A stretch of DNA of 64,000 nt, the filler included, from Lenisia limosa (taxonomy: Eukaryota > Protista > Breviatea), in NCBI GenBank assembly GCA_001655205.1. It is 12 parts of 12 records of this genome, joined end to end, with 100 filler letters (N's around TTAATTAATTAA, not from the genome) between each part and the next. Parts side by side here need not be neighbours in the genome. Positions count along the whole stretch, not along the records: positions 5,352 to 27,412 come from LPNZ01008364.1; positions 27,513 to 33,765 come from LPNZ01003400.1; positions 33,866 to 36,317 come from LPNZ01010804.1; positions 36,418 to 43,929 come from LPNZ01004534.1; positions 44,030 to 48,578 come from LPNZ01010220.1; positions 48,679 to 50,097 come from LPNZ01002947.1; positions 50,198 to 53,220 come from LPNZ01006598.1; positions 53,321 to 57,435 come from LPNZ01007346.1; 4 more parts are not named here. One strand, 5' to 3'. A program made the translations under genes and the position numbers. The first letter of the stretch is position 1, and the number at the start of each line of letters is the position of its first letter. Positions 12,724 to 62,565 of the stretch are shown piece after piece. A model generated the notes under the pieces. The model saw only the letters and a program-made list of their open reading frames with translations, did not search any database and had not been told where the DNA came from.

Positions 12724-15700
12724 CAATTTGGTATTGCATATGGCAGTTTCAAGGTTTCAAGAAGCCCCCCTCCAACTTGTACACAGAACTGGTGACCACA
12801 TGGCAGGGGAATCCTGGTCTAAAGAAGTAAACCCGAAGCAAGTGTCAAGAGGTAAACCCGAAGCAAGTGTAAAGAGGTACACCCGAAAAGTGTAAAGAGG
12901 TAAGCACGAAGCAAGTGTCAAGAGGTAAACACGAAGCAAGTTTAAAGACGTAAACATATCATGGTAAAACTAAAATATAATTTAATCCATGTAATCTATG
13001 TGTGAATATCAAATATCGATATTATATGATATATTACATCATTCATATAAACCTACGAGAAAAAAAATTCAATTTATTACGCATTTATTAATGTCCTCCT
13101 CCCACAGATCCGAATGGTTCGCTACAGATGACACACTCCTCTTGGTCCTCAGCTTTCTCAGGCGCTGTGGAAGTGACACGATGAAAGACGAACACAAAAA
13201 TGTCAACCAGGAACTTGTTTTAAGTAAGAATATGCCCCCCACATTTAGCGCTATTCTGCAGGCCGACAAGATACGACAGAGAGCGTTTGGCCTTATTAGC
13301 CTCACTGGACTCCGCATCATAGTTGAGCTGGTACTGTGCTCGAAGCGTGGTGACCTGGGGAAGTTAATGGGGATAGGGGGAGTAAAATTGGAAAATTTAT
13401 GAAACAAAAAAAAAAACCCCAAATCAACTCTGTTGGTTGGCAACACAGAGGGGNNNNNNNNNNNNNNNNNNNNNNNNNNNNNNNNNNNNNNNNNNNNNNN
13501 NNNNNNNNNNNNNNNNNNNNNNNNNNNNNNNNNNNNNNNNNNNNNNNNNNNNNNNNNNNNNNNNNNNNNNNNNNNNNNNNNNNNNNNNNNNNNNNATATA
13601 TCATATAATTACTCTATCAATGGGAACCTCAAAAATATTCATATTTCTAACATCAATACTATTCAACCCACCTCATTCAAATTGATGTAGAACTCCTCTT
13701 CTAGGATGCGGCCATTTTGGGTTGAAATGCCCAGGGAAGGCTCTGCACCAGGCCACTGTAGAAATTAATACGGAGAAATAATATCTGGCCAAAGCCGTCC
13801 ACATCTTTGGAATACATGGAAAAACTCTCTACTACTCCTATGATATGTAGTCACCAAAACGAACAAATCAGTGACCACCCCACCGATTGTCCAGGTTCCA
13901 ACACAAGTCGGCTTTCAGCTTGAGCCAACTCCTCCCATGAATTGAAAACATTTATCGCAGTGTCAAGGTGTTGTTCCATACTGAGTGGTTACTTCAAAGA
14001 TTATACAACTTAATAAAAGAGAATTAAAAAAAAGCGGATAACGATCTTATATTTTCGAGGATTATCGAGAAATTCAGTCTTTTCTTGAACCGAGAAGCCT
14101 AGGTATCCCAGGAGCAGATCTCGCTCGTACATTTTAAGAGATTGGTAGATCCCTGTTGTTTTTTGTTTTATTTACAAGCTCATCTTTCCATCCCTATGAT
14201 ATTTGAAAATATAAAAAAAAAACTTCAGATATACGATGAAATTAGAGGCGTTGCCGAGAAGGCTGGTTTACAAGTTATGCGTGTGCAAAAAGATGGCGAG
14301 TACCTCTCAAGGCTGTTCTTATGAAAGAATTAGCGAATGATGTAGATTACGATATTGAATTGGGACTCTACGATGCTGTGCTTGGTGATGATGATGATTG
14401 TCCTCCTGTAACTGAGGAAATTGAAAAAGTTGATGGTACAGGTGGTGATGATGATAACGCTCTTGACGAAATTGTTATTTCTATGCTTACTTCTTGTCAG
14501 TCCTTCAATGGGTCTGTTCGTCGGCAAAGATTTTGGAAGAAACTTGTTAAAAATCTCAGCAACCCTGAGTTGAAGAAGAAGGAGGCATTTCTACCAAATA
14601 ATGTCGCCGTCAAACAAGAAAACCTGTAGACGAAAACGAGTTTTTGGCTCGTATACTCATATCTCAAAATCTTAACGGCCTGGNNNNNNNNNNNNNNNNN
14701 NNNNNNNNNNNNNNNNNNNNNNNNNNNNNNNNNNNNNNNNNNNNNNNNNNNNNNNNTAGGTGTTGCAACAAAAGAAGACACCAGTGGGAGTCTTCAATGT
14801 TTTGGAATGGAAAGGTTTAATTTTGCCAAGTGGTGCAATTAATTCCACTTGTCAAGTAGCCATTATGGAGGTGCTTATAGAAATCGCCACTGAGGGAGAC
14901 GTTTGTTATTTTGGGGTTGTCTCTTTCTTATCTACTTCCCCAGGATCACAATGGTGCATTAAAGTACTCTAAAGTTACATTTATTGACCCCATTTCATTC
15001 ATCGTGCATTCGAAGACTACTCACTTAAGAGCTTACACGGTACGGTCTTTCGCATATTGTATCTTTTGAAGGAACATATCTACTCTTCGACCTTATCATC
15101 CCCACACTGTTTGTCTGCTACCACCCTACCTATCTGATAGCTTTAAATACGATATCATATACATACTGCAAGTTTGAGTTCTTGTTTTTGTTGTTCGATT
15201 ACTTTTCAGAGACCTACATCAAAGGATAATGTTATCTTTTGGTTTTGTAATAATATTAATAGCAGCTAACCGAACTTATCATCGAAATGTCATGAATGTC
15301 ACATTGTCTGGGCTGATTACATGGTGTTTTTGTTTTATTGTTATTGTTAATCTGGCTCATTATGCAAACGAAATGACAGCGAGAATGATAATAAACCTTT
15401 GTTGAACTCAACAATTATCTCAATGATCACAACAGTTTTACAAGTCGTGAGGTTCTGGAAACTCACACCGCTGCTGCAGCTTTATCAAAATTACAGGTCA
15501 CAACGTCACACTTAAAGGACTTTTTTGCCACTTGGAAACGTGGACTGACATATCGGAAGAACAAATGTTGACCCAGATATAATCATCAACGCAAGAATGG
15601 AATGGGCTGAGCTCTTGATGGCCAATATTCCTTCCAGCTGACGGATTTAATGTTTCTTCCAGCTTTCCAGTTGTCGTTCCCCTCATTGTTTGCTCATTGT

Positions 15701-18700: not shown

Positions 18701-21700
18701 AAAGAGTACACGGAACTCATTAAAATCGTTAATCTACGATTTTACATTAATCGAATGCATGAAGCGATTATTTAACCCACTTAATCAATTATTTATTCCA
18801 CAAGCGCTTATTTATCTTACATGAAGCGATCGTTAGGACGCGATAGTGCCATGTCTTGAACGTAATTTCTCCACACGTCGTCATCAAGGCCATACTGCCA
18901 ACTTGCAAAGGAGTTCACGTCCAAAACGTCCTGTAGCGGATGACAACCAACAAGCAATACACTACCCTCAGAGAAATAACATTAATGTTTCAAATGATCC
19001 AAAAATGATCACGATAGTATATGCATATAGTATAATGAATTTTTTTTTACATGGTAAGATATACTGTAATGCGTATCAAGATGCACAAAGAGTCAAACCA
19101 ATGTGGATACGAGAAACCAAGGAATTTAGCATACAGAAAGACGGTCATTTGCCTGTTCCTCTGCTGCGGTTGCCTATGCGATGAAAGAGAGAAAAGAAAC
19201 GGAAAATTTTCAAGCGTCTATCAAATTGAATATGCACTACGATACTTGACTGTATATTGCTTATTCAAGCAAAAAAAAAAAAGAGAATGGGTTGCTCGTA
19301 AGTTTCACTTCGATTCGAAAATAGACTGAGTTTCTTGATGAATATCAATATTTATTTTTTTGGTCTTCAAACCAGAATGAAACTCTGCTGAAATATACAG
19401 TTTTTTTAAAGTTCCCCCCAGTTCTCAAAAAAATACTTAAAATAACCACTCTGAACCCACCAGCAAGTCAAGCTCTTCATTGGTAGAGAGACCGAGGAGA
19501 TCACCTGGGGGAGTAAAATTGGAAACTTTATGAAACAAAAAAGCCCAAATCAACTCNNNNNNNNNNNNNNNNNNNNNNNNNNNNNNNNNNNNATTTTATA
19601 GAACTTTAGTAAAACTCACTAAGCAGTTTATTGAAGAATATCCACTAAATAAATATGAAAGTACGTGTACTATATTGCGAGAGGAACTAATATCTAAAAG
19701 GGGAAAAGAAGATATTGCTAATAATTCGTAATTGGAAACAGCAAAGTTAAGGTGGTACTATAGTGTAAGAGTGTTAATCATCCAGTCATGCATTGCGCTC
19801 GCGCCACACCCGTGTACCCTCCAGTCCCCTGGTTACCCGGATTGAAGTCTAGTTCTTGTTTGTATTCTTCGGGTTATGATTCATCTTTATTCCTGATTCT
19901 GTTTGATTGCAATGCCTTCTTCCAAGTCTTCCAAACATCATCACAAAAACTGACATTATTAAGACAAATACGACAAAGGCGCTGGTCGATCCAAGTCCGT
20001 CGAACCGCCTAAACCTCATCAGTCTGTTCAACCACTAGTCAGCGATGGGGCTTGCTGTTCAACTACCAGTCAGCAATGGGGCTTGTTGTTCAACTACCAG
20101 TCAGCAATGGGGCTTGTTGTTCAACTACCAGTCAGCAATGGGGCTTGCTGTTCAACTAATAGTCAGCAATGGGGCTTGTTGTTCAACTACTAGTCAGCAA
20201 TGGGGCTTGTTGTTTTGCTTTCTGTGCTCTGTTCTAACAGTTATACATTCAATATTTCCCATAAAGTTGAAACGTATTTTAAATATCAAGATTACTAACC
20301 TTCATTGGCTGCAAACGTATATTATTGGGTGTTCATATCTTCTTCCACCATCTTCCTCATATTCACTCACTTTCCAAGACAGCAGCATTTGAGACACGCA
20401 GTAAGAGAATGTGGAAACACGCCACTCATTTTCTCCCCTGTGCTCCAATTTGGTGTAAGTGGGTTTTGTCTCATGATGTCTCCGTTGCTTCACATTCTTC
20501 GGTGATTCATAATAGCTCGATTCCAACTCAATGGTAAAGACCCTAAGTCAACTTGGCCTTTCCAAGGAACAACAGACCACCCTTCGTGCCACTTTACCCG
20601 AAATCTGATAATATTCTCTTCGACATGTCCAGAGTCCTTCTTCTGGACAACAATGTCTGTGTTTTTTAGTAACTACTTTGTGAGGAACGCAATCCCTTGT
20701 AAGTTGATGTGTTTTATACAACAACTCGAGTTTCTGACAAGCTGGTTTCTTCGTCAAACCAATTTAAAGGCAGAATGAATGCGGCTGCCAAGCTGCCGTG
20801 GATTCGGTCGCTACTGACTATTTCTTCTCTGCTGGAGAGGAACGAAGTTCTGTTCCCTGGTATGTCAGGGGGGGAAATGTGTGTCACTTGAGCATTTTTG
20901 AATGCGGAAGTCTATGAAACAATATCTCCACTTTCATACTATAATGCTATTGCATGCATATGTTGCTGTTACAATGATAATAGACAATAGTATATTTTAA
21001 CTCATAATCACGTGACATGGTTAGGGTTGAGTCACAACGTTGAACGAAACGTTAAACGAAGATTTTCCCGAGTGTATCAGAGTATCATTGATAATTATCG
21101 GTCAATATCACAGGAGTAGACATGAGGTATCATATTACTGTGTGGAAAATGACAGTTCAGACTTGACAAACCGCCATGTATGTACCGTCAAAGAAAACTC
21201 CGCCATCATTTGCACCGTGCCCATCTTTGCCGGCTGGTATAAGACTGCCAGAGGATGGGATTTCAAGGAAGAAAACGCCAAAGGTACTACCAATGTTCAG
21301 CACTTTGCCGAGTTTGTGATCAACAGACTTCTCGGTGGTAACCAGCCTTTCCCTCCTCACCCAGGCCATTGCCGAAACCAACGCCAACTTTTCCGGTAAT
21401 GACACCGACCTCTCTCCTGCTGAGAAAGAACTTATCGAGCTGTGTTTGCCTCACCCTGGAGACTACATCCGAAACGTCATCGCCGCAACTGAAAGCCGAC
21501 GTCTTCGACAGGCTGAGCGCTCTCAGTCCTAACGTTACTCAAGACGTAGTGCTACAGCTTGGGAGATATCCCCATTCAACTCAGTCCAAGATCGCCTACC
21601 GCCTAGTTTATGTTGTGTAGCACACTGATCTTGTTGCGATGTAGGAATTGTTTTCATGTTACATGGCAACATGGTTTATTCGGGTTGTGTCATGTCGTTG

Positions 21701-24700: not shown

Positions 24701-27412
24701 GGACGGTTCTCCTGACAGAAGGGACTTATTCTTAGTAACTGGATGTGGGAAAGAAGGCCTATCACTTGGTTCAGCAACAGGCTTTTTCTGGGGCTGAGAC
24801 AAGATCGGCAAAGAAGGCTTCTCGGAAGCGGAGAAGGTGAACTCCGGGTGAGCATGGTGGTGAGAGCTTTCTGGGCCCCCAGAAGCCAGAGTTTCGTGTG
24901 AGAGAAATGACGGCATGGAAGGGGCAGTGCTGGTTTGAGAAGGGAACGAAAAGAGCGGCTCAGGCCCTTGACTTTGACTGGATGTTACCGTTGTGTCTTT
25001 TTCGGGTTCTTTTACCTGTAAAAAGGAGGGTAACAACGAAGCATTGCACGAAGGTGGATCAAAAGAAAACTTCTCTTTGTTCTCCGACAGTGCTGCTGGT
25101 GTAGCATCAGAAAGCTTCTTCTCAGATTCCTCAAGTAGATTTGACGACTCAAGAATTTCAATATCCCTGCGCTTCTTCTTTTCCGGTGCTTCATTTTCAA
25201 TAGCCGCCCCAAGACTATCTTCCTCGGGCTCCACAGACGCCTCGCAATTGTTCTGGCGTTGCCAGGTCTGACGGAGGTCCTAGTGCTGTCAGGAATTGAT
25301 GCGGTAAATAAACAAACAATAAAGCGCTATTGGGGAGCCAAAAAAATACAACTATACCCCCCCCCCCCCAANNNNNNNNNNNNNNNNNNNNNNNNNNNNN
25401 NNNNNNNNNNNNNNNNNNNNNNNNNNNNNNNNNNNNNNNNNNNNNNNNNNNNGAAGCGCACCTTCAAATAGCCGGCAACAGTTTGCGTGGTGGACTTGAG
25501 GACCCTTCGGTAATAATACGACTCGATCGGGTCCAGATTGATCTTGATGGTGTGTGTTGACCGGGGCGGAATGCCAAGCTGGCAACGTTATTCATAAGAA
25601 AAATGTTTTAAAGGTACAGATTCTACACATTACCCTCCCTATCAATGCAGTCCTCAAAACAGTGACCGTATTAGGCGATAGCCAGCATGGTCAGTAGAAC
25701 TACTAGCAAAACGTAGTAAGTCTTGACAGATTGTTCTCAAGAGAAATCTGATACTGTCGGTCAAGACTTAACGTGTTCACTATGATACGTAAAATATAAC
25801 AATACAGTGCAATTATTTTCCATAATCAGAATCATGTGTTTCTGGTTACACTACATCCCACTTAAAATATAAAATTAATGTACCAATTAATTGCACGGAA
25901 CCCTAATAACAAGGCAATCTCTCACCTGATGCACTACATCGACATGGTGACGTCTCCAAAACACTGGCTGAAATGGTCACGTTGAAAACAGTGAAAAAAA
26001 GTGCTATTTTGACCAATAATCAGGGTTATAGGCCAATATTGTCCGACGCAACAAACTGAATGTCTTTAAAAGTGAGTGGCGCCACCGACACATCACGTAA
26101 AATTGTTTCTAATTGATGGGGGGGGGGGACACACAAAAACAAAGCCTAGGCCAGTCACTTCTACAACACCACATCACACTACTTCCAGAGGGTGAAGCAA
26201 AGAAGTTTGTTTCGATGAATATGGACGCAAAGGTACTAACAAAGGGGGGGTATGAAACAAAAAAAACATCAACTCTTGTTTGGTGAAACATTGTATCCAT
26301 AGAAGCCATAATAGTCCCCAAACCTTCAACAAGCTGACAGCGCGGTTCAAACCTCGGCTATCCTGAGCCCCTACTGGGTCTGAGGGGTCAAGTTTGGTCA
26401 ACATTTCAGCGGACAGTTTTAATATATCGTACCAAATAAAATTATTAAACAATGTTATTGTAAACTATCAGGAAAAGTAAAAAAAAGGGGGGATGGGGGG
26501 ACTTCTATTGTTCTCTACAATCCAATGGGATACTTAGGCACAAGGCTGATGATGCCATGGTATGTATCACAACTAGTGATTCACTCAGATCCGAAAAAGA
26601 CCAATAAGCTATCGATAGATGTTGAGAAAAGAAATACAGTTCGCTTTTGGATCGAACTAAAGCCCCAATCAAAACAATCAAAACAGAAGACAACATACCC
26701 GCAATGAACTGCTTCCACTGATTCTGTGACAGCTGTAACGGGGACTACAGTGTGAAGCGGAGTACAAGAAATCTAGGAAAATATCAAGATGATCGCACTT
26801 TTGATTTGAATGTACAATATGTATGAGACTCTTTATTATGTCTCGAACAAAGTCATGCGATAAGCCGAGGGCTTCACTTCGGTTTGAAAAAGGTAAAATA
26901 TCACAGTTTTCGAGGATTTATCGATCAATTCAGTCTTTTTTTTTGAACCGAAGTGAAGACCTAGATAAGCCATTCAGCATTGCTGGGTCCTTACCTTCAC
27001 AAAAGCGAGTAAGAGGCGAAGGTCATTGATAGTGTCCACGATAGGGGTTCCTGTAACTGCCCAACTAAATACATTACGAAGGCGTTAGCATAAAAAATAT
27101 GATATAATATAGTTGGGATAAAGTTTCTGGCCGAATCCATCAACACCATCACGCTTATAAGAGATATCGGATTATAGTGTAATAGTAATTCACCAAATAA
27201 TTTGCCTTACAACTCTGTGCACACAGCTTTCTGCATGGCATAAACTATAAGACATATCGATATATGATATATGTCCGATAAATTCCGACATTTCTGCCAT
27301 TTAGATAGATCTCACCTGATCTCAGCTCTCAAATCAAGCGTGAGTTGTGTGGACACGGAGGCGGCCGAACGCACCATTTGAGCCTCATCGATCACCACAC
27401 GCCACCAGTTGA
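10210..27412 (-). CDS. SHPRH: SHPRH-type SNF2 helicase / C3HC4 RING E3 ubiquitin ligase (5' part cut off by scaffold end)
   Basis: Spliced exons give the SHPRH motifs in order: WWRVVIDEAQMV (27320-27412), WAVTGTP, PVFWRR..LGIPP..LDPIESYYYRR, LKKLRQACCHAQ (23750-23847), DNFQRLHILSNL, RING CVIC..CGHQFCVQC..CPTC (13130-12560), GSKVEAIV, KALIFSQW, LLLPIKSGANGLNITEANYVFLIEP, QAVNRIFRIGQTRP..YIVADSVEDRV, and a last exon LTLGTLWKLVRPE* ending at 10210. Confidence 0.9.
10871..10952. mobile_element. MITE family E (CAGTG-terminated, TA-flanked, Tc1/mariner-like)
   Basis: TA-CAGTGACCAGGATAAGTCCTGACC...GGTCAAGACTTATCCCGGTCTCTG-TA; homologues at 35146-35221, 58147-58220 and 31150-31242. Confidence 0.8.
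11761..11945 (-). repeat. Stacked G'/B'/G modules ending near a SHPRH acceptor (11750-11752)
   Basis: Sense: ..TTCCTTCGTTTTACT..AAATTTTCCAATTTTACG..GGAGTTTCAAATTATTCGGTTCG..TATTCTTCATCGATATTTCCTCGTTTTACCCCCCCTCCC..TTCCAG|. Confidence 0.8.
12828..12950. repeat. 25-bp minisatellite, ~5 copies, in a SHPRH intron
   Basis: Unit TAAACCCGAAGCAAGTGTCAAGAGG. Confidence 0.9.
13376..13452 (-). repeat. Family B intronic repeat, 3' end ~19 nt from a SHPRH acceptor AG
   Basis: Sense strand reads ..CCAACAGAGTTGATTTGGGG..GTTTCATAAATTTTCCAATTTTACTCCCCC-tatccccattaacttccccAG|GTCACC. Confidence 0.85.
14102..14972 (+). pseudogene. Antisense coding-like segment inside a SHPRH intron, frameshifted or gapped, product unknown
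   Basis: Protein-like acidic frame 14321-14629 (MKELANDVDYDIELGLYDAVLGDDDD...) continues in a shifted frame as VDENEFLARILISQNLNG. Flanking plus-strand AG/GT-bounded pieces at ~14102-14144 and from 14229. Interrupted by the gap at 14683-14756. Confidence 0.35.
16029..16119 (-). tRNA. tRNA-Glu(TTC) with a 19-nt intron at position 37/38
   Basis: Reverse complement folds as acceptor TCCCTTA/TGAGGGA, D arm GTGT/ACAC, anticodon stem GTTGG/CCAGC with loop CT-TTC-A|C, and T arm CCGGG-TTCGATT-CCCGG. Intron AGTTCTTCGGAACAAAGCC; mature length 72 nt. A T6 Pol III terminator follows. Confidence 0.92.
16270..17035 (+). other. GC-richer, Pro-rich coding-like segment inside a SHPRH intron (antisense), unresolved
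   Basis: Frames such as APAPPVPIQGSLLPSGPKQPTPPPAAPEAS (16300-16457) and a 125-aa ORF at 16658-17035. Split by the gap at 16458-16561. No family recognised. Confidence 0.25.
19507..19556 (-). repeat. Family B repeat ending directly at a SHPRH acceptor
   Basis: Sense: GAGTTGATTTGGGCTTTTTTGTTTCATAAAGTTTCCAATTTTACTCCCCCAG|GTGA. Confidence 0.85.
20037..20213. repeat. 31-bp minisatellite, ~5.6 copies, in a SHPRH intron
   Basis: Unit AGTCAGCAATGGGGCTTGTTGTTCAACTACC, head-to-tail with no spacers. Confidence 0.92.
21160..21532 (+). pseudogene. Antisense coding-like fragment inside a SHPRH intron
   Basis: DLTNRHVCTVKENSAIICTVPIFAGWYKTARGWDFKEENAKGTTNVQHFAEFVINRLL joins ...TQAIAETNANFSGNDTDLSPAEKELIELCLPHPGDYIRNVIAATESRRLRQAERSQS* via a 1-nt frameshift near 21334 or a 49-nt intron. 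C/T-ending codon bias resembles RPL34. Confidence 0.4.
26868..26964. mobile_element. MITE family A in a SHPRH intron
   Basis: GGGCTTCACTTCGGTTTGAAAAAG...TTTTTGAACCGAAGTGAAGACCTA. Confidence 0.8.
27115..27240 (-). repeat. Family D copy in a SHPRH intron
   Basis: TCTGGCCGAATCCATCAACACCATCACGCTTATAAGAGATATCGG..TTTGCCTTACAACTCTGTGCACACAGCTTTCTGC on the plus strand. Confidence 0.85.
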
Positions 27413-27714
27413 NNNNNNNNNNNNNNNNNNNNNNNNNNNNNNNNNNNNNNNNNNNNTTAATTAATTAANNNNNNNNNNNNNNNNNNNNNNNNNNNNNNNN
27501 NNNNNNNNNNNNGGACAATTTTTGAAACAAAACAAGCCCAAAATCAACTCTTAGGGAGAGTGGGTGATGTCATTGGGAAGGAAGATGGATTATGAATATA
27601 ATGTTGGACCTTCGCTCACACACATTAGCAATTTTGGGTTGTTGTTTTATTAGCAATTCTGGGTGTTGTTTTGTTTTTTTGTTTGTTTGACACCTGTAAA
27701 TGTTCTGATTTTTA

Positions 27715-30700
27715 TCTCCACCTCCCACTAGCATTCAAGGGGTTTGTCATCTCCTGAAGGAAGGATGTTTTGATTCGACGACTATGTTCATCTTCTNNNN
27801 NNNNNNNNNNNNNNNNNNNNNNNNNNNNNNNNNNNNNNNNNNNNNNNNNNNNNNNNNNNNNNNNNNNNNNNNNNNNNNNNNNNNNNNNNNNNNNNNNNNN
27901 NNNNNNNNNNNNNNNNNNNNNNNNNNNNNNNNNNNNNNNNNNNNNNNNNNNNNNNNNNNNNNNNNNNNNNNNNNAACAAAACAAATAAAGCCTTTACAGC
28001 ACCGCATCCCAGCGGTTAAGGATGGGGATGGGGTAGATAAAAAGGTGAGTATCCTCCAGGATAGAACGCTCCTGAAGACATACTCCCATTGTCCCTTCAA
28101 CACACACATACTTCCACCATCCTTCAACACTAGGGCTTCCCGTCGGTCCCATAATAGTGAATTTCTATGTTCTCGATGAGTCTCTTCTTTTGACGATCTT
28201 TTTCGTACCGTAAGGAAGCCCTATGTAACACACAAACCCCCATCATTATTTCACCATCCCACCTTGGCTGGAGCGTTTCCTAAAGAACGCATCCACCTCA
28301 TCAATGAACAAGAGGGCCGGCTTGGAGTTGCGAGCAGCCTCGAAGAGCTGGCAGATGAGCTTCTCGCTTTCTCCAACGTAGGGACTGTTTTCGTGAAATT
28401 TTTCAATATTTATCGATAATTGATTGAGGAATTATCAATAGTTTGCTACACTATAGAGGTAGAGTCAGGTGAATATCGAGGATAGATCAAGAAATTCAAA
28501 AAATCAAATAAAAAAAGGTTATAGTACAATAGTGGTCTATGTTGACCTCATTTTTCAAATTAATTGACACTCGTAGTTCTAAACTAGAGCACGATAAGTG
28601 GAAATGAGAAATGGTAAGAGAATATCAAAATATAATAGGATATCAGAATAAAAAGGGAGCATCACCTGCTTCATCACCTTCCTTTGATTGCATGGCATTT
28701 TATCGAAAAGAAGGAAAATATAAATTTGAGGGAAATGAAGGTGAGAACCATTTGATTTAATTCTACACTTTAGGTATCCCTTCCATTTCCAGCATTCGGG
28801 AGACTGTCACTGAGCACAAAGAATGGTGGCAAGGGTAGATCCAATGAGGGGGAGACTGGTCTGGGTAGACAAGAGGCCGGAATAATTGCGCTGAATAGTG
28901 CAGATGTTACATGGGGTGCCCATATACGGTGGTGTTGATGGAAATGTTCAGCGGGTACACATCAATAGATACGTCAAGATAGGTGAGTGATTATCTTGAC
29001 CATTGATTTCAACTTCTCTCTAAGTTTTTGATTCATCGACCTGACATCCAATTTAAAATTATTGACCAACATTTGAACAATATCCGATCGAGATATGTGC
29101 CGTTTTTGATTAACGAACAAAACCATTATAATAGGAATGAATTAATGAAATTTGCTTCATAAATTTTCTCCCAGATTTTGATAACTGATTTGTACACCTC
29201 AATCATCAATGGTGTGAGTGTGAGTTATATCTGGAACACAATATTACCAGGCATCGATGGTTGGGAATCATGTCCCAGTCTTTTTACCGAGAATGTGAGT
29301 GTTTTCGACCAAGAATTTTATTACTATGAAACCTTTTAGATGCCACGTCTTCGGATGCTTCGCAGTATCTTTAAAAGCAAGGACCAACTCCAAATAATCC
29401 AAAATTAACGTGAGTGTCTCTTATATGATCGTACAAGCCTGTTGTTAACATACTTCTGGCGTGCTTTGAAACTTTCACCTTGTATGTAACTATTACTTGT
29501 GCCTCTTTTTTGACCTATGACGTTTTTACCAACTAACTCAACTCTCAGAATGATCGCCAAACACCTGCCCTTAGTTCGGCGGGGGGAGTGCTTATCAAAC
29601 AGAATGAAGCCTCAACACGAGTAAAAAAACAGATTGCAAAAAGTGAACAGGAAAATCACAGTAGAAATAGAAAAAGCAAACCACAACCCCCCAAAAAAGT
29701 CATCTTTTAACCGCAACCCATAATAACTGTAATCATGTAATTTTAATAGTTAGACTGTCGTGTAGTTATTAGGAGTTTCAGATTATTTAGTTCGTGAATA
29801 GTAACTTTACACCGAATTCTTTCTCCCCATCCCCCCAACACTTTCAAACTTAAAAACAACCCTACCACTCATACGACAAAACTAACAAAGAATCCACGAC
29901 AAACCCAAAAATGAACCCATGACAAACCTAAAGAGGTCCTGGGCCCCAGCACCAAAAATGAACCCATGACAAACCTAAAGAGGTCCTGGGCCCCAGCACA
30001 AATAAAGTTTGTTTCGAGCTCGTTTGCCGCGGCTCGAGCCAACATCGTTTTTCCTGTTCCTGGGGAAAAGGGAGGGAGTAAGAAGAATGTATATGGGGGT
30101 AAGATAGTATAAGATGCAGGTAAGGTATTATATCAGACTGAAGTAAATATTACCTAAATTAAATTCTCTTAAATAATCACTTTGAAATGGGGTAGGGGAG
30201 ATATGCTGATGGTGGGATCAGAATTAATGATACCAAACAAAAAAAAACAGCAGAATAGGAAGCTTGAGAGTTGATTACAAAATATCAATACCAACCTGGA
30301 GGTCCAAATAATAGCAGAGTTGTAAGTGTTTTTCTTTTTCCGGTAAACAAGTGTGGGAACCTAGAAGCAATGAGCATGGCAAAAAAAGTGGGGCTGAAGC
30401 CATCCACTTCATCGCATTTATCACAGACAACAAAAATTAACAGAGTGAAGGATTATGATTAATTGACTAAGGCAGATTGATAATTGTTGATTTTAGATGA
30501 TATATCGATATATTGTTTTTGCGCCAACCTTAAGGGGTAGAGAAAGGCCTCTTTTAGTACCCTCTTGGCCTCGACAAGCCCCACAACGTCCGTGAAGAAA
30601 AGACCATTTTTGTCAGCTTTTACGGGGGCTGTTGGGAGGAACGGATCTGGAGGGAGGGGGGTAAATTGGAACGTTTTTTTTTACAAAAATAAATAAAAAA

Positions 30701-34604: not shown

Positions 34605-34666
<62 letters not shown>

Positions 34667-47811: not shown

Positions 47812-47840
47812 TATGACAATATTATATATATATGGGTCCT

Positions 47841-48505: not shown

Positions 48506-48839
48506 GCTATACATATCATATATCCCACCGGTCATAAATCAGGTGGAAATCAGAAATCAGGTGGAAATCAAAAATCAANNNNNNNNNNNNNNNNNNNNNN
48601 NNNNNNNNNNNNNNNNNNNNNNTTAATTAATTAANNNNNNNNNNNNNNNNNNNNNNNNNNNNNNNNNNNNNNNNNNNNTGTTGTTATCAACCCTTGTGTG
48701 TTGTCAGCCAACAGAGTTGTTTTGGGCTGTTTTGTTTCATATATTTTCCAATTTTTCTCCCCCCTTTATTTCTAATGTTTATTTCTCATTTCTGCGTATT
48801 TATTTTCATTAATTTCACATACTCTCACCAATATTTACA

Positions 48840-49985
48840 TTGGGTTTAGACCTGGATAAAGTAGAACCGCTCCCAAGCTTTAATATAGAGGACGAGTTAC
48901 CTTCATCGAGGGACGGTTTCAATTCGCCTAGTTTGGGTAGGGCGGGGGTGAGTTTTGCCAAGCTTTATTGGATGGGAGGTTCAAAACTGAGGTTTACAAA
49001 CTACAATTGGAAATGGGTGTAGATATCAGGCTTTTTTGTTTCATAAAATTTTCCCTTTCCACCAACCGCCACAATCTGAATATTACTTGTTGGTCAATAC
49101 CCTTTAGGACCAACAAGTCTCATACAACATGGATATTGAGCTTTATCATCTTGGTCTGGTTGAGAAATGTGTTGATTTTGGATTGGTTGGGTGATGGGTG
49201 AGGATTGTTTCTGAGGTGAAGGGTGATAAACAAATTAGAAATAAAGGGTTTCTGAAGATAAGGGATATTGGGTCATGGAGTTTACCAGAGCTAAGTTTTC
49301 TTCAGCAAATAGTCTGATTCCAATGAAAATTTTAACTTCCCATTTAGGAGGTTTAGAAGCCAGCAATTCCGAGCTTGTCAGTGTCAGCTCACTCACTTCG
49401 AAACCCAACTTGCAGCAGTGGGGGGGGGGGTANNNNNNNNNNNNNNNNNNNNNNNNNNNNNNNNNNNNNNNNNNNNNNNNNNNNNNNNNNNNNNNNNNNT
49501 AAATATTGTGTTTTAATAAAAAATATTATATTGGATCTGTAGGTCGATTATCACACGATAGTGTTTTCATCAAAATTTCTTTCGCTTCACTCCTCCTCTC
49601 TCAGGCTCAACCTGGTCCTCCCGGATATGAGGGAAGCTCTTGAGTTGGCCCGGGCTTTTGTGACTAGTCTGTGCAACGCGTTTGACTCCCTTACAAGGTA
49701 GGGAATAATGGGGTTTTATGTTGTGTATTGGGGAGTGTATTGTGGTAGCCAACATATTCGATTTTGGGTTGTATTTTTCATAACTCTTTGGGAGGCGGTG
49801 CTGCATAAGCGTCTGGCCTGGGCTTTGTTTGTTTTGCTGTTAGCAACTCTTGTTGTCAGCCAACAGAACTGGTTTTTGATCTTGTTGTTTCACAACATTT
49901 CCAATTTACCCACAAGACCGTCCGATCACATGGCTGTTTTGGCCCATATTGTGTCCAATCGCGAGCACCACAAACTCTTCAAAGT
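48840..49985 (+). CDS. Unidentified multi-exon protein fragment
   Basis: AG/GT-bounded exons LNLVLPDMREALELARAFVTSLCNAFDSLT (~49604-49697) and RPSDHMAVLAHIVSNREHHKLFK (49917-49983). Confidence 0.4.
49790..49910 (+). repeat. Family B copy ending at acceptor 49915-49916
   Basis: GGGAGGCGGTGCTGCATAAGCGTCTGGCCTGGGCTTTG..GTCAGCCAACAG..TTTCCAATTTACCCACAAG|. Confidence 0.8.
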
Positions 49986-50252
49986 AAGGGGGTGGGGTAG
50001 ACTGTATAACGTATATATTAAGATAGTTTGCCAATAGTTGATAGAGATGATTCTGGGTTTTTTGTTTATAAAATAGTCCATTCACACCGCTACCCCCNNN
50101 NNNNNNNNNNNNNNNNNNNNNNNNNNNNNNNNNNNNNNNNNTTAATTAATTAANNNNNNNNNNNNNNNNNNNNNNNNNNNNNNNNNNNNNNNNNNNNTAC
50201 TATATATTTTATATAATATGTATATATTATATATTAATATTCCTTGTAGATA

Positions 50253-53320: not shown

Positions 53321-56300
53321 ACTGTGGGCCAACCCCTGCAAACCACTCTTCACAACAGCCTCAATTTTGTCGGTTTTGTCCGTGGCCGTTTTGAGGTCAT
53401 TTTCCTGTCTTCTTTTGGCCTTACGGATTTTACCTAAGGAGGCTATTAGGTGTCTGTCCTTGAAGTTGGAGCTTGGGCTTCACTTCGGTTCGGAAAAAGA
53501 CAGAATTTCTCTATAAATCCGAAAACTATACCTTCAGCAAGTTTAATTTCGGACTCCACCTTGGCTATTTCAGCATTGGATGACGCTGATTCAGACTCAG
53601 CCACAGCTATGGGAGGGAGGGCAGTGAAAATTTGCAAACAATAATAAACCAAAATCAACGTAAAAATAAATGATTGGGGGGGGGGGGGNNNNNNNNNNNN
53701 NNNNNNNNNNNNNNNNNNNNNNNNNNNNNNNNNNNNNNNNNNNNNNNNNNNNNNNNNNNNNNNNNNNNNNNNNNNNNNNNNNNNNNNNNNNNNGACAACA
53801 CACGAATGTTGATAATAAGTGTTATATAATCCAACGTCCCACCATCTTCCTCAGCCAACAAGCTGCTCAAATTATCGGCAACTGCACTGAGATCCTCTGC
53901 ATGGGTCTCTAAGGCCTTGGCCTTATGACGCCATGCGTCTATGCCAGATTGTTGCGATGTTGTGAGTTGGGTCTGGGAGGGCGGGTTAAAATTGGAAAAT
54001 TTATGAAACAAAAAAAGCCCAAATCTGTAAAAGTGGAAAATATACAACAATAATATGCCCAAAAGAGACATAATTTAAACTGGAAAATGTAGTGTCAATA
54101 GTACAAACAGCGATCGCAAAGTCATGACACGATTGACAAAGGTATCCGTGCCAGGATAACGGCCAGTGTAAATATGTCAGCTACTATGCTTTTGAAAAAA
54201 TAAAACAACCCATACGTACCTCCAAGGATTTCAATTTCTCTCTCAGTTCGTTCACCGAAGACTCCAACTCCTCAGCCTTTTCTGCAGAGTAAGGTTTTTC
54301 GATAGCCTCGCAACTATCCGTTCACTCTATATACTGGACGACCGCCCTAAACTCTCGCCCAAAAATATTTGACCCAACAACACCCACCGTCAGCAAAGGC
54401 GTCACTTCGGTTCGAAAAATAAGAGTAAAGTATCGATAAGTTTCAAAGATTTATAGAGAACTACAGTCTTTTTCGAACCGAAGTTAAGCCATTACACAAC
54501 CCTGACTCTTAACTCCCCCCAAAACAGTTGACCTCACAACCCACCGAAATCCTCTTCAGCAAGGGCGTCACCCTGGTTCTTCTCAGCTTCCGAAATGAGT
54601 CGACTTGTCTGATGATTGTGAATAAATGAGGAACAAAAAATAAGGTTGTATCTGGCCGAAGACATGCACACCATCACGCCTATAAGAGATATTGGATTAT
54701 AAGAGATACTGATATTGAAATATTAATTCACCTACAATGATGTAGAAATTGTCTGATAATGATTTAGAGATGAAATTGTAAACAAGGTTGAATCTTGCCG
54801 AAGTAGCATAAACATCACCGATAATTATCTAGTATTTTATTTCATATCAAATAATAGCATGTTCCAGACACCCTACCTCGCCCAGTCCGGCAACAGAAAC
54901 GGCATATGTCAAGTGGGCCTTCACGTAATCTGAATGTAATCAACTGGCAGTGACTGAGATTATTTACATAGCATTTGATATACTCAGTGTTATTGACTTC
55001 TGACTAGGATCCCTACGGTCCCAAAAAGACAAAATTTCTCGATAAATCATAAACCCCTTATTTTACTGGTCTTTTTCGGACCATAGGGAAGTCCTACATA
55101 TAACTAAAATAAATATGTGGGAGTGGGGGGTTGTTCATTCAATAAATAGTACTAGACTGCTAGATGGTTAGAATCAGCATCGGTCAAATGAGCCTTCGCA
55201 TTGACTGAATTGTTAGTACATGGCCAAATGTCCTTTCACATTTGGAATAGTTGTTGGTTGGGCTCCATGCAAATAATCAATCAAATGATATTGTTTGTTT
55301 ACGATACAAGATGACTGCTTAACATCATGCAGCGTCCTACCAATATCGCAGTCTCGCACTAGGTCAACTGTTGCTGCCGATGCGTCACGAATGACGGCCA
55401 TGTTTTCTGGGGAGGGGGGGTATCGTATTACTATGTGGAAAACGATAGTACACACGTCATAAAGTGGGAAAAACAATGATTTGACCTTTATCAGATCCAA
55501 AAAAAAAAGAGCTGAAATTTGGTTGTTATCTTTCAAGACTTACTTGTTACGGTCTCACCCGCAAACCTTCGATTCTCACCTGAAGGGTTTTCTCCTTCTT
55601 CTTCTTCACAGCAACACGCTTCATCTTTTTTGTCTTCTTCTTTGTGGCTAAAGAGTTAAAATACTCTATTCATGTTTTTTTTCAGATTCACATATGGACT
55701 GACAGCGACAAGTTCTGATACGTTTGACAAAAATAAAACTCAGATGAAAGGAAAAGCTCAATCCTTGTTAGAAATTATCGCGGTCACTGTATACTACGTG
55801 TTTTATATTCGGGAGTATCAATTGAAAATCCCCCCGATGGAGAGGAAANNNNNNNNNNNNNNNNNNNNNNNNNNNNNNNNNNNNNNNNNNNNNNNNNNNN
55901 NACATCCGAGTCAATAGGAGTGGGGGGAACAAAAACATCAGTCACAACCACGGCCGCGGGGGCAAGTTGCTCTTCGGAAACCTCAGTCGGAACTGTTTCG
56001 GTTGCGGTAGTGTCGGCAGTCGGTGCAGTGGGTACCGGGGGAAGGTCGAAATCGTCTTGGCTCGGAGCGGATATGTTCATACCAGCCATCATATCGGTCT
56101 CTGTGGGATAGAATAACATTTTGAGATATAATAAAAAGAAAATCTTGGGAAATTAATAAATACATAGGAGGATAATCTGTCATCCCAGTCACTGTATATA
56201 TTCTATCAAAAAAAAAAGAAAGAAACAAATCCCTCTGAAATGCCAAACACCAACCAGGTTCTGTGTGAGTGACTGGCTCAGCAATTTCCATACAAACACT

Positions 56301-56900
56301 CGGGGGAGGAGAGCCTGATGCGAAAATCATGGAGAAATTACAAACAAAATTAAGGGAAATTTTGGTGAGAACATGGTGGAACTTACGGGAAAGTAGTTGA
56401 AATTATTCACAATATCTGTTATAATGTTGGAAATTTGTTTCAAAAACACGCGAAAATAACATCTATGTATCATATTTGACGTAGCTATGAGTATACATTA
56501 AACCCCTACTCATACCCCCCCCCCCCACGGTTGACAGGGGCACTTGGAGATTGCGGCGGGGTAGCGGAAGCAATTTTGAACCCTCCACGGCCACGCCCTC
56601 TTCCTCCTCTGCGTCCTGTGCCATTAATTGGACAATTTATGAAATAAAAAAGCCCAAATAAACTTTCGAACAATACCGTTTAAATATCGATATTTATCAA
56701 GGATTTATCGAGAAACTCGGTCATATTTGGGGCTGAAGGGAAGCTCTAATTACACTGTATATTGATATTGTCATACGACATCAGCGATATATATTAGGGA
56801 TAAATTTTATAACGCCCCCCCCCTCTCTATACCCACCTCGACCTCCACGCCCCCCTCGCGATGTGGGCTCTTCTGGCTCAGTCTTCTTTGCAGGGTGCTG
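53321..56900 (-). CDS. Unidentified coiled-coil protein with RGG motifs (partial)
   Basis: Exons EPEEPTSRGGRGGRG, GRRGGRGRGRGGFKIASAT, KKKTKKMKRVAVKKKKEK, KAEELESSVNELREEIEIL, AWRHKAKALETHAEDLSAVADNL, AEIAKVESEIKLAE, each bounded by AG/GT. Confidence 0.5.
55005..55096. mobile_element. MITE family A (CCCTACGG subtype)
   Basis: TA-GGATCCCTACGGTCCCAAAAGAC...GTCTTTTTCGGACCATAGGGAAGTCC-TA. Confidence 0.8.
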
Positions 56901-57535: not shown

Positions 57536-60500
57536 AGGATGAACGGCCACAGGTGTACGTTGTGCCAGATATCCTGGACCCCTTCTGTCCAACAAAACAC
57601 AATCTCTTTATTCCGGCCGCCAAAGCCACTGAAGCGTTAACTGCAATCTTCGAGGCCATTCCCGCGCTCTATCCTATGAACTCCTGTATCCAGGCGTGTG
57701 CCGGTGAGCTCTTCTGCGGATAATGCTGCACCTCGTCCCCCGTTGTTGTTTGCCATAAACCCCCCATTGTTCACCCCGCAGGCTCGGCGCTGGCAGCCTG
57801 CCACGATGCTCTGCGCGACTCCGGAGGAAAGGTGGTCCTTATCGGCTCTTCAAGACCAACCTTGGTAAAAAGGGAAATTAAATGTCATTTCGGTTCGAAA
57901 AATACCGGTAAAATATCGATAATTTTCGAGGATTTATCGAGATATTCAGTTTTCGAGCCAAAGTAATAATGATCAACAGTTCCAGTAACATCGTTCTTAC
58001 CGCCAGGGCCTTGGAGCATTGACGGTTCGAAGCGCTCCTCCTGTGGGGCAAAACCAGCGGCAGGGCGACAACAATCATCTCATCATGGTTTGGCGAGGGG
58101 CAAGTCAAAATTGTGCCGAGCGTATTACTAACTTATATCATATACGTTGACCGGGATAAAGTCTTGTCCGATTTTCCTTGGGAAATCACGAAACAAATCG
58201 GTCAAGACTTATCCTGGACACACACAATAAATCTGGCCATTCTGTGGATACAGATGTAATATATATATCATATACTACACCTCACCCCCTCCCCAGACTC
58301 CTGGCTCTACATGGTACTCTTCTTTCCTGAAGGAATGCGTGAGAAACTCTGTTTGTACGCGGGAGTGGGGAAACAATGTTTGCATAATCTCTTGTTTTAG
58401 GGTGAGGAGCTCATTATCACCACTCACTCCCTAGCCATCGACTTACTCACTCCCTAGCCATCGACTTACTCACTCCCTAGCCATCGACTTCCTATTGGGC
58501 CCTAACAAACCCATCGACATGCCCTCTTTCGGTGAGCGATACAAGGCATCCTTTACGTTTTTTTTTATTTTGTCTTCCATTCACCATTATATCATTTCCT
58601 GTTTTACATATGAGAGTATATGATTATTAATGTACCTAGTTCAAAATACATGATAACATAAAAACAAACCCCCCCTTTCTTCACGTACCTTTACACCAAT
58701 ATTTTCATCGAAATTTCCTTCGTTTTACTCACCCCCAGTGCCCCTTGCCACTCAGACCGGAGGCTCCATCCACTTCATCCCCGCCTTCCTGCAGAACAGC
58801 CCTCACGGCCATGCACCGCAGCTCAACTCCTTCATTTTCGACATCTGCACAAGACCCCAAGGTACGCCTAAACTACGTTGTGCCGTGTTAATATTATTTC
58901 AATGCGGCTCTATTGTCGCTGTGCCTTTGTTTATTCCGATGTGACGGTTCAGCGTACGACGCGGTGTCGAGGGTACGGTGTAGTCAAGGCATCGAGTGCA
59001 AGAACTTCCATGGTCCCTTCTACATGAGCAATGCTACCGATATCATGATGGTGGGGGGTGTGAATTGCGATTAGGAATTCCCTTCGGCCCGAAACTTACG
59101 TTCAAATATCGATATTTATCGATGTTTTATCGAGAAATGCAGTCTTTTTTGGGACCGTAAGGAAGCCTTAATTGGGATGGAGTGAACTCCGATCATCTCA
59201 TCCCACAGCCTTGTTTCGACTCGCAACACTCCATCATGGTGGAGCTTGAAATGACCTCAAACATCCCCAAAGACTCCAAACCTGCTGTTCAAATGGCCTT
59301 ATTGTGGGGGGGGAAAATGTAAGGCCAATGGCAAATGATAGGTTAACTTAATACCATAATAATATATTTATTTAATGAATAGCTCTTATATGATGGTGTG
59401 ACCTTCGACCAGATACTTCCTTTATAGCTCTTATATGATGGTGTGGACCTTTATTACCGCACATTTCCACATCATGACCTTTAGGTACACGTCGGCGGTT
59501 GGCGAGAGACGGATCCGAACGATCACGATCCAGCTCGACACTGGCGACAGCAGAGCCACGTTCTCTCATTGCGATGCCGATGCCTTGGTCACTTTCCAGG
59601 CCCGCAGAGGTATGCGGTCTGAACTAATAATATGTCAATAGCAGAATTTAGCAAGTATCCCTTTGATAAATATTTTGACAAAAGGGTTTATAATAGTATT
59701 TTTTTATTATGCTGACGCTCAAGCTGCCCATCGCCTTGCCTCCCTCCCCCTTCGCACTAACAGAGATAAGGTTTTTAGCAGCATGGTGGGGGGGAGGGGG
59801 TTGAATGAATTTACCAAATTCCTTGATAAACAATTATATTGAAGGCTTCGGTCCAATATCACCTTTTTTATTTGTCATTTCTACGCATCGGAAATATATC
59901 ATTGCATATGTGTATCGATATCATAATCATCAATATCTTTTGAATGTAGACAGCCTGATTTCTCCGGACAAAGTTGAGTGTATTATGACTTGTTAAAGAT
60001 GTATATGCAGTTGTCACAAATATGATGTATATTCAAAGATTTCGGCCAGATACAACGTTATTTTATTTTTTTCTCATTACTATATATATATCGATATATT
60101 ATATAATTATATGTATGTATACTCCAAGATAACCACTTGGTGGTGAATCTCAGAATGGCTTCCACCCTCTCTCCCCTCACCCTTCAGATTGGACCGTTGG
60201 CAGCCTACAGAGAAGTCACAGAAACATCGTCTACTGGTGGGAGGATATTTCAATGTTGACAATGTTCTTTTTCTGAAGTTGTACGTGTGTCTTCGAGACA
60301 GTCAGTTGCACTGAGGGGGACCCTGTCTTTGTAAACTGGTGTTTTCATCCGGAAAACGCCTTGTTTTTGTAACCACTCCCAAGACAACCACTCTTGGTTA
60401 TGTTCTTGCGAAACATCAAGCATTCACCCAAACAGAGTTGATTTGTTTCATAAATTGTCCAATTTTACTCCCCTCAGGCCAGTTCATTCTGCCCGAGGCT

Positions 60501-61148: not shown

Positions 61149-62565
61149 AGTCGGTAAGCCCGGTTGTTTCATTCAAAATGGCTTTGTCGTTACATTCAAT
61201 TACAAGTACTACACCCCTTCCCGTACCTGTCCAAAAACTCCTTCACAATCTCCTCGTTGTAGCGAAGAATATAGAACGAATCGGCCGTCGCAACCATGCC
61301 TGAGTTAATGATGTAGGGACAACGGCATGGACATTGTTTGAAGGGTCAAAGCATAAGAAACAACTTATGAATAAAATATGAAAACTGCAAACTGATAAGG
61401 GAATAATGAGGTTAGAAACCCCTTAAATGCTCTCTATCTACTTCACTTCAGTTCAAAAAAAGACTGCATTTCTCGATAAATCCTCGAAAACTATCATTAT
61501 TTTACAGATCTTTTTCGAACCGAAGTGAAGCCCAATCCCTACCCCACCCCCCACATAAATGCCCGGTTTGGGACCAGTCCACCTTGGTAGCCTCAACCTC
61601 AAGACGACCCAGGCATGTGCCCTGGGAGGGGGGTAAAATGGGAAATTTTGTGAAACAAAAACGCTCATCAACTCTTTTGGAGGCTGACAACGAAGGAAAT
61701 GTCGATGAAGAATAGGTACTCACAAAGAACCGAATAATCTGAAACTCCAGACAAAGGTAATGATATATCGGGGGAGGGGGTTGATGGGAAACATTTATGA
61801 AACAAAAAAAAAAAGCCCAAAATCACTGATAACATATGTCAGGAAAAAGACTGAATTTCTCGATGAATCCTCGATATACATCGACATTTAAACAGTCTTT
61901 TCAAACCATAGGGAACCTCCAGTTATGAACAGAGTACCAGTTAGAGTTCTTTCCAATTAAGGTAGTTCTTTCCAATTAATGTAATGGATCAATTATGGCA
62001 ATTAATGTAGAAATTAACTGCTGGAAAGACCTCATACCTTTGCCCAATCTAGCATCTCAACTGCATCCTTCGTTTTGTAGGTCAGGAGAGGGCCTAAGGC
62101 GGAGTAAAATTGGATAATGTATGAAACAAAAAAAGGCCCAAATCAATTCTAAGGGGGAGTAAAATTGTAAAAAAAATATGGGTCTAAGGGGGAGTAAAAC
62201 GAAGGAAATGTCGATGGAATATTGCCAAAGAGAAAAACGAAGGAATTCTCCGTGAAATATTAGCACAGGCCTAAGGGGAAAACGAAGAGGCCTAATTGGA
62301 GGAGCCCCCCTCCCCCACATACCATTGAACACGTCCTCAACGTCTCTGCAGGGGTGGCTTGCCACCTGAGGCGGTAAAAATAATACAACATATCCATTCA
62401 CTTTTTGGATCATTTTCGTAAGATAATTGACGTTAAAAATGTTACGTTTGAGTAATGGCTGAATGAGAAAGCACAGCAGGGATATTGAATCATGATTGCC
62501 CCCCAGACCTTGGCGAAGTTTTTGTATACATCCACAGAATGCGCCTGGGGCACTCCATACCTGAG
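61149..62565 (-). CDS. COPB2: Coatomer beta'-COP (Sec27), internal fragment
   Basis: Consecutive exons VDVYKNFAK, VASHPCRDVEDVFNG-PLLTYKTKDAVEMLDWAK-GTCLGRLEVEATKVDWSQTGHL..VATADSFYILRYNEE..TGLTD match the beta'-COP second propeller region (IYGGFLLG..FYDW..IRRIEI..WS..GELV.IAT..SFFILKY). Confidence 0.85.
61440..61532. mobile_element. MITE family A in a COPB2 intron
   Basis: CTTCACTTCAGTTCAAAAAAAGAC...TCTTTTTCGAACCGAAGTGAAGCCC. Confidence 0.8.
61625..61830 (-). repeat. Stacked B'/G/B modules ending at a COPB2 acceptor (61622-61624)
   Basis: Sense: ..GGAGTTTCAGATTATTCGGTTC..TTCTTCATCGACATTTCCTTCGTTGTCAGCC..GAGTTGATG..TTTCCCATTTTACCCCCCTCCCAG|. Confidence 0.8.

Follow-up and report, generated by a model that had tools for sequence, protein, structure and literature searches.

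A sense-oriented repeat family at the 3′ ends of existing introns in Lenisia limosa

How can a dispersed repeat lie in a single orientation and close against the 3′ splice sites of unrelated genes? The question is raised by family B, a repeat of ~140 nt in the introns of a 64,000-nt stretch of the Lenisia limosa genome (assembly GCA_001655205.1), which consists of 12 scaffolds with 100-nt linkers between them and is called the window below. An earlier note on this DNA had described about 20 copies, sense to the host in unrelated genes and often abutting acceptor AGs, and had offered DNA-level targeting of C-runs, RNA-mediated copying between introns, or selection against antisense copies as explanations. 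We found that B is sense-locked and 3′-anchored in existing introns, a pattern replicated on held-out DNA, and that it is a probable mobile element, which appears to take over intron ends without making new introns.

A sense-locked repeat at intron 3′ ends

Genes were modelled by hand curation of 19 gene fragments from six-frame views, which replaced the output of an overpredicting self-trained gene finder. After boundary fixes, these fragments held 79 introns, all GT-AG and 38–619 nt long, and all 19 spliced chains were free of stops; splice-site use was inferred from these reading frames. A leave-one-scaffold-out codon model, used to test the frame and strand of the fragments, supported the chosen ones in 16 of the 19, and the other three (SHa, g2a and zf) were placed by their stop-free chains, together with Pfam matches for SHa and zf. 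Successive exons also matched successive Pfam positions in the SEC24 gene (Sec23_BS positions 2–28, 35–65 and 67–85), the AAA gene (8–27 and 37–74) and the SNF2 gene (125–153 and 157–178), and a Sec23_helical match from Pfam position 52 began at the first SEC24 residue after a B acceptor. Pfam supported the names SEC24, AAA ATPase and SNF2-RING helicase (SEC24, VPS4-like and SHPRH in the earlier note), but matched none of the five exons of the gene called COPB2, a label that we keep as an assumption, as we do for a presumed galactokinase-like gene whose exons match no Pfam family. Short single exons were too weak as homology queries to give a usable result.

A B profile refined from 19 seed stretches gave 35 matches in the window at a threshold of at least 8 bits, seven of which came from additional units of a single 30-nt tandem array; in a reversed-window decoy the highest B score was 5.6 bits. 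The matches occupied 24 introns on 10 of the 12 scaffolds, and a 25th intron (AG 53607) held sub-threshold fragments only. By the curated strand map, B was host-sense in all 25 introns, and in 24/24 (p = 6e-8) without scaffold 1, the host strand of which is less certain, so that the sense orientation across unrelated genes is stronger than first stated. The control family A, a miniature inverted-repeat transposable element (MITE), lay 11 times in sense and 8 times in antisense in the same introns, and by this comparison (24/24 versus 11/19 sense, p = 0.0005) B lacks the two-way orientation of MITEs. One weak antisense B-like fragment (35216–35256), which scored 10.6 bits with the first profile and less than 8 bits with the refined one, speaks against the strand lock.

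The last B copy ended no more than 17 nt from the AG in 11 of the 15 curated introns with an intact copy end (1.8 expected, p < 5e-6), compared with 0/19 for family A. When introns with a missing upstream exon and the sub-threshold case were added, the B tail lay at the AG in 13 of 17, and many terminal B introns finished in a similar C-run followed by CAG. Either B or a second family, C, terminated 15 of the 77 curated introns with a visible 3′ end (about one in five), and these introns were longer than the rest (median 241 versus 158 nt). Head-intact B copies began 90–270 nt downstream of the donor, inside the intron, which bears out the proposal that B makes no whole introns. Stop-free GT-AG chains supported 11 of the 12 acceptors assigned earlier (last intron bases 13355, 19505, 30647, 36098, 46253, 49916, 53973, 56616, 60477, 61622 and 62094); the acceptor placed at ~56608 exists but shifts by 8 nt to 56616, and the one at 45706 was lost, as all three frames stop ahead of the first GT; the acceptor that can be used there, 45771, lies 75 nt beyond the copy. 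Acceptor-adjacent copies beyond that list were found at AGs 62561 and 53607. Among the copies that had been regarded as non-adjacent, those at 26108–26285 and 48679 are internal, the one at 53630 is adjacent after all, and gaps or ends truncate those at 5352, 27513, 30961 and 63938. The window scaffolds contain many internal assembly gaps, which often start at G- or C-runs, and the true number of B tails is therefore likely higher than the count; the copies at 27795 and in the intron at 30960 are probably acceptor-adjacent, with their tails hidden by gaps. A collapsed-assembly artefact is unlikely, because the ten long B copies are 71–92% alike (median 84%) and B recurs in a separate assembly.

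B has a YTGGAG-like head, a G-rich stretch, a U-rich body and a tail of TTTTAC plus a C-run. Its 3′ end is common to the copies and its 5′ starts scatter from profile position 3 to 115, most copies keeping the tail and missing a variable amount of the 5′ side, although later deletion would leave the same picture as 5′ truncation. Of the 62 introns that end in neither B nor C, 33 place the A of a branch-like TNAY motif at −9 or −10 and 49 place it at −8 to −13, which suggests a nearly fixed distance between branch and AG. In 10 of the 12 B-terminal introns the nearest branch-like motif (−9 to −19) was B's own, which favours the earlier view that B supplies branch and C-tract, and the other two had a separate motif at −10; by this position, the A of B's tail likely acts as the branch point. 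Acceptors of B/C-terminal introns outscored the rest (8.5 versus 6.1; 15 versus 63, p = 0.002) in a matrix built without B/C-terminal acceptors. Several internal copies (11874, 45558, 48679, 49020, 49744 and 61770) had lost the branch-like A or the C-run. C-rich direct repeats stand at both ends of head-intact copies, and inverted ends in the B consensus amount to no more than a 7-nt core close to each end, beyond which indels intervene, while the terminal inverted repeats of family A are clear.

The hairpin to which the earlier note had drawn attention can be drawn, with 87% of cells paired. Its pairing showed no excess over shuffles and no covariation, and fold z-scores of five B copies ran from −1.4 to +2.3; a functional hairpin, which neither folding nor covariation supports, was rejected. 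Rfam and ARAGORN found no match and no tRNA-like head in B, and neither an Rfam match nor a covarying structure indicated an intronic structured RNA (small nucleolar RNA (snoRNA), microRNA or ribozyme); by visual inspection alone, the head appears to contain an A-box-like stretch, and no poly(A) tail was found. An internal donor at the B head was rejected at a GT donor score of 0.6, and a twin-intron reading was set aside because it would shift reading frames that are intact. Donors across the window are very G-rich, often GTGGGGGG. With G-rich 5′ and C-rich 3′ ends, the introns here resemble structured introns with complementary ends, AC/GT in fish and GGG/CCC in human (PMC4691745), but in 68 introns the pairing of same-intron ends did not exceed that of shuffled ends (p = 0.67), and end pairing was dropped.

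Held-out contigs and companion families

When prokaryotic genomes were scanned with a pattern for B, copies turned up on eukaryotic-looking contigs within one bacterial metagenome-assembled genome (MAG), G001, a species representative contaminated with eukaryotic contigs (C39, C42, C43, C46, C47, C56, C60, C61, C67, C69, C71 and C72). A metagenome scan for B gave only 2 chance matches, in bacterial DNA, and three scans of viral collections gave none. Among 45 stretches scanned with the repeat profiles (43 fetched, plus L004 and L005), 12 had matches of at least 8 bits on eukaryotic-looking DNA, and one bacterial contig was marginal at 8.4 bits. The held-out contigs have only repeats in common with the window and so represent independent loci. 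Host-strand calls by the self-trained gene finder were clear, after chain checks, for L004, L005, L006 and L007, and weak for L014 and L028. B was sense in all six introns with a firm host strand (three on L004, two on L005, one on L006), which brings the count for window and held-out contigs to 30 of 30 callable introns; L008 and L014:3168, for which no host strand could be called, were left out of the sense count. The tail was fused to the AG in six of seven held-out introns, among them the weak-strand L014:5523, which entered the distance count only, and lay 44 nt away in the seventh.

These contigs offered further observations. The exon directly after a fused B at L004:5490-5503 opens with 13/14 nt matching the B head, a match that may point to an exonised second head, to a circular intermediate or to a source locus. 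At L004:1410-3755, a B copy is interrupted by a 2.3-kb element that has inverted ends and contains a pogo-like reading frame; B is therefore older than this insertion. The eukaryotic-looking contigs encode Tc1 and pogo-like DDE transposases, and on one of them an intact 1969-amino-acid (aa) Helitron Rep-helicase open reading frame (ORF; L011:1163-7069) has tandem repeats on both sides. A seven-exon, stop-free gene (L007:519-2426, minus strand) has no Pfam match and carries a sense copy of family D in an intron; we take its motifs to be those of a KDZ-type transposase. Three related intronless ORFs of ~900 aa (L018, L027 and L033, and L026), with weak similarity to a DUF5906 nucleoside triphosphatase plus a zinc ribbon and a GC content of 50–63%, are possibly an undescribed mobile element.

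All-against-all comparison followed by profiles showed that strand bias, which the earlier note had seen in B only, also occurs in families C and D. Family C (~90 nt) has the same tail as B, forms chimeras with it and was sense in 10 of 11 copies. Family D (~150 nt) has a T-rich tail; all 20 matches were sense by the curated strand map, and six of eight curated cases lay 21–61 nt from the AG. Examples of D are at 1182–1314, 27122–27239, 51491–51590 and 54630–54735, and on L004, L007 and L024. The YTGGAG-like head motif is common to B, C and D and the tail to B and C, and B/C modules cluster (30 in 18 introns versus 22.9 expected, p = 0.011). D contains motifs resembling an H box and an ACA box; as no consensus structure was found, a conserved snoRNA-like fold with two hairpins was rejected. 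Near one D copy, at 54600–54770 (minus strand), a 9-nt acceptor and first-exon stretch is repeated 20 nt upstream of D, like a junction-spanning duplication.

A strand lock on all repeats was excluded. Families A and E are palindromic and occur in both orientations, and family F (~220 nt, with internal inverted repeats; 786–1001, 1673–1773, 20988–21171 and 56971–57177, also L014, L015 and L029) is mostly sense in the window and apparently antisense on three held-out contigs. Family A is a ~105-nt MITE with GGGCTTC...GAAGCCC inverted ends and TWA-like flanking triplets, presumably akin to Tourist/PIF-Harbinger elements, with ~31 window loci in both orientations (for example 5778–5880, 40261–40362 and 44681–44783), never less than 20 nt from an AG.

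Copies and neighbouring features along the window

The copies range from a full-length element to short tails. On the plus strand, a full-length B with a 30-nt tandem array of its head (35723..36090; the G-rich stretch is expanded at 35723–35970) ends 8 nt from AG 36098 with a separate branch-like motif at −10, and two head-to-tail copies (49744..49913) make up most of a 219-nt intron and are fused to AG 49916. A C-B chimera (46154..46253) is fused to AG 46253 and a short B (60429..60477) to AG 60477 of SEC24, where a family C copy (58685..58738) is fused to AG 58738; a weak C tail (49565..49599) lies 5 nt from AG 49604. Internal plus-strand copies comprise serial B, C and B modules (45558..45696), the last of which stops 75 nt from AG 45771, a B without its branch-like A (48679..48765) 84 nt from AG 48849, and a short B (49020..49060) 47 nt from AG 49107.

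On the minus strand, the 3′ part of a B with a gapped 5′ side (13372..13453) lies 17 nt from AG 13355 of the SNF2-RING helicase gene, another 3′ part (19506..19556) is fused to AG 19505, and short copies are fused to AG 30647 of the VPS4-like AAA gene (30648..30719) and to AG 53973 (53975..54026); a short B without C-run (56626..56665) lies 10 nt from AG 56616. Composite ends are formed by serial B, C and B modules ending at AG 61622 (61622..61826), by four tandem C plus B-tail modules, each closing with a C-run and TAG, the last of which is acceptor 62094 (62094..62290), by a rearranged B of head and tail pieces ending at AG 62561 (62561..62699), and by C, B and C modules (11750..11949), the last C being 13 nt from AG 11750. 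Gaps interrupt a head-bearing B whose tail is inside the gap, with exon sequence after it (30960..31073), a B head with its remainder in a gap ending at AG 27795 (27990..28029), and the sub-threshold fragments that flank a gap and end at AG 53607 (53607..53818). Two internal B fragments (26108..26285) lie 140 and 282 nt from AG 25968. Scaffold ends truncate B at 5354..5420 and 27513..27557 (both minus) and, at its C-run, at 50041..50096 (plus); the window end truncates a copy at 63936..64000 (plus) and the window start a B head at 1..37 (minus, host strand less certain). The sole antisense C copy (29771..29830, plus strand) is in a long intron of the minus-strand AAA gene.

Among neighbouring features, a tRNA match of 91 nt (16029–16119; Rfam, 47 bits), probably intron-containing, lies within the helicase scaffold and was missed by ARAGORN in bacterial mode. 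A zinc-knuckle gene of five near-identical exons with phase-0 introns (37124–38606) is a clear case of exon duplication. A 23-nt unit across a SEC24 acceptor is present in three tandem copies (58420–58490), acceptors are also locally duplicated at 59380–59450, and a donor-side duplication is seen at 29905–30000.

How family B may move

The sense lock, the 3′ anchoring, the common 3′ end, the 5′ loss, the head-to-tail stacks, the C-B chimeras and the match of the tail A to the branch position are features of the copies themselves. With a probability of roughly 0.4, we favour tail-primed retroposition: copies would insert into branch/C-tracts, pass a splicing filter and then become fused to the AG. 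B would be a non-autonomous retroposed element of ~140 nt, kept in sense in pre-existing introns. A B RNA copy would anneal through its TTTTAC and C-run tail to a nick in a similar branch/C-tract and would be reverse transcribed by a partner enzyme. A sense copy at the 3′ end would rebuild the branch, the C-tract and the spacing to the host AG, a reversed copy would be purged by splicing because its own acceptor comes along, and later deletion between the B tail and the old C-tract would leave many copies fused to the AG. We infer all of these steps, from priming and reverse transcription to branch use and selection. The shared 3′ end, the scattered 5′ starts, the common B/C tail, C-rich flanks and module clustering point to tail-primed retroposition, as do two duplication candidates, the position of the branch-like A, the stronger B/C acceptors and a cryptic acceptor in reversed B.

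Tail-like sites (9/12 matches), counted in B/C-free introns, numbered 10 in sense, mostly near AGs, and 10 in antisense, mostly near donors, and another 10 were found in putative intergenic DNA. Since these sites are strand-symmetric, many antisense copies would be expected if a C-run in the DNA were the sole determinant, and the C-run targeting offered earlier is insufficient by itself. Selection against antisense copies, in turn, has acquired a concrete basis, as the reversed B consensus contains a cryptic acceptor with a score of 8.3, where real acceptors have a median of 6.1 and a 90th percentile of 9.1; the best acceptors of eight real B heads when reversed scored 1.5–7.5, and those of reversed C and D 0.9 and 3.8. 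For D, whose tail is a T-tract, tail-like sites were strand-biased (24 sense versus 5 antisense), and much of its lock would therefore follow from target choice. Seven head-intact B copies had a C-rich upstream flank (0.38 versus 0.17, p < 1e-4), and target-duplication candidates were seen for B (13/14 nt around L004:108-234) and D (10 nt exact around L004:7612-7700).

Microsatellite-targeting long interspersed elements are known as further target-primed retroposons. B shares with short interspersed elements (SINEs) and other such retroposons the common 3′ tail with variable 5′ truncation, a target-like tail, tail-sharing families and the duplication candidates, and pairing of tail and target in target-primed reverse transcription is known for Alu and L1 (PMC3812793). 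Unlike SINEs, B has neither a poly(A) tail nor a tRNA-like head, and no partner was found in the DNA scanned. The T-tracts of antisense Alu copies create new exons, whereas B takes over a constitutive acceptor in sense.

Several observations weigh against tail-primed retroposition, the missing poly(A) tail and tRNA-like head among them. Six 5′-truncated copies are without the C-rich flank (0.15), which may thus belong to the element itself; a family-wide target-duplication test on 27 copies was not significant (p = 0.09–0.18), nor was the branch-like motif significantly enriched at the 5′ junction (9/39, p = 0.07). Neither a eukaryotic reverse transcriptase nor an autonomous partner sharing the B tail was found in the window and the few eukaryotic G001 contigs, a small part of the genome; of 2 RVT_1 matches in G001, the one looked into belongs to a protein of the group II intron type, encoded on a contig that looks bacterial. 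Tail-like sites exist in intergenic DNA, yet 7.3 kb of putative intergenic DNA held no B, C or D match, and A was also depleted there (2 matches). Reversed C has no cryptic acceptor, yet C is nearly always sense, and short B copies are without the head and hence without the cryptic acceptor. The main weakness is that selection must purge every antisense copy, C and short B included, with the partner not found.

The strict lock, at 30 of 30 introns, is best explained by a splicing-coupled RNA route, which we nevertheless consider doubtful. An excised intron ending in B would be rejoined, at the branch region or a junction between exons, to a different transcript, reverse transcription would run from the exon into B with a variable stop, and the complementary DNA would convert the gene, so that the pre-mRNA dictates strand and position. 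Such a route accords with the absence of copies from putative intergenic DNA that does contain tail-like sites and with tails at the AG in most window and held-out introns, many with the similar C-run-CAG end. It also has a precedent in the introner elements of Micromonas, which are sense only and confined to transcribed regions, with 32 remnants in conserved introns and nested or merged copies, and for which reverse splicing has been proposed (PMC3879977). However, in five long copies (13355, 36098, 48849, L004:278 and L008) separate host sequence intervenes between the copy and the AG, the B head extends upstream of its own weak GT, the D-to-AG sequence varies among introns although D is sense-locked, and there are also the antisense C copy and the two candidate target duplications. 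The broader proposal that B, C and D are all splicing-coupled elements, moving as intron 3′ segments that overwrite host branch and acceptor, seems more doubtful again.

An ordinary element that inserted at random, came under strong selection sparing only sense copies near the 3′ end and later collapsed onto the AG by deletions between its tail and the host branch/C-tract is unlikely. The cryptic acceptor of reversed B, the internal copies without branch-like A or C-run, the lower frequency of fusion among long copies than short ones (judged by eye) and the avoidance of AGs by A, which implies selection at intron ends, would all suit it; but neutral two-way copies outside introns would then be expected and none were seen in the 7.3 kb, sense D survives with a strong donor-like site (6.3) while reversed C and D sites are weak, and long copies are already 3′-biased, mostly at 0–84 nt. 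Less likely still is a rolling-circle (HUH) element, similar to Helitrons or Replitrons, whose target would be orientation-specific, or ectopic copying from one C-tract to another in the course of DNA repair, without a dedicated enzyme. Tandem stacks and chimeras fit rolling-circle copying, and Helitrons are recognised by a 5′ TC, a 3′ CTRR and a GC-rich subterminal hairpin, all absent from the B consensus and copy ends. The intact Rep-helicase ORF lies in the same MAG, but neither its contig nor five other GC-rich contigs had any B, C, D or F similarity above 5 bits, so the ORF comes without shared ends. Replitrons insert in fixed orientation after RG and have short direct terminal repeats and variable duplications (PMC10288648); the orientation, tandem stacks and C-rich direct repeats of B may parallel such elements, but the targets of Replitrons and Helitrons are 2–4 nt and strand-symmetric, so that the same selection would be needed.

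Micromonas introner elements are the nearest precedent for B. Like B, Introners are intron-confined repeats, sense only, that carry 3′ splice signals, but they form whole introns in exons, remnants and merged copies being a minority, whereas B as its main state forms only the 3′ end of introns with unrelated donors. An Introner survey demands similarity at both boundaries and drops secondary insertions (bioRxiv 2022.06.06.494994); B shows similarity at the 3′ boundary but not at the 5′, where heads lie well inside the intron, and it is thus partly Introner-like but not an Introner. A decayed Introner is very unlikely; B would in that case once have formed entire introns, which other insertions later enlarged and which were then stripped of their 5′ parts. 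The sense lock would need no further explanation, B makes up most of two short introns (117 and 219 nt), and B-intron donors match the B head slightly better than other donors do (10.6 versus 9.5, p = 0.015, confounded with G-rich donors), but head-intact copies stand far from the donor, 16 donors share only the G-rich consensus of the genome, and similarity falls short of the working definition just cited. Searches of a mostly open-access literature found no report of a repeat mainly forming the 3′ end of existing introns; the supplementary figures on Micromonas remnants may bear on this novelty.

The evidence base is small, at ~64 kb and stray contigs. Mobile elements otherwise create whole introns or sit passively within introns. 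Here about a fifth of the curated introns end in two repeat families, and the branch signal itself thus seems to be replaced by mobile DNA; as B-like cases are filtered from Introner surveys, they may be overlooked elsewhere. Movement of intron sequence by an RNA route is a long-open question in intron evolution, and with a nearly fixed branch-to-AG distance and hundreds of expected copies, this genome offers a direct test of RNA-based, splicing-linked intron movement. If B belongs to a splicing-coupled class, intron 3′ ends would be spreading among unrelated genes as selfish units, with no gain of introns, and would preserve a genomic record of partial reverse splicing.

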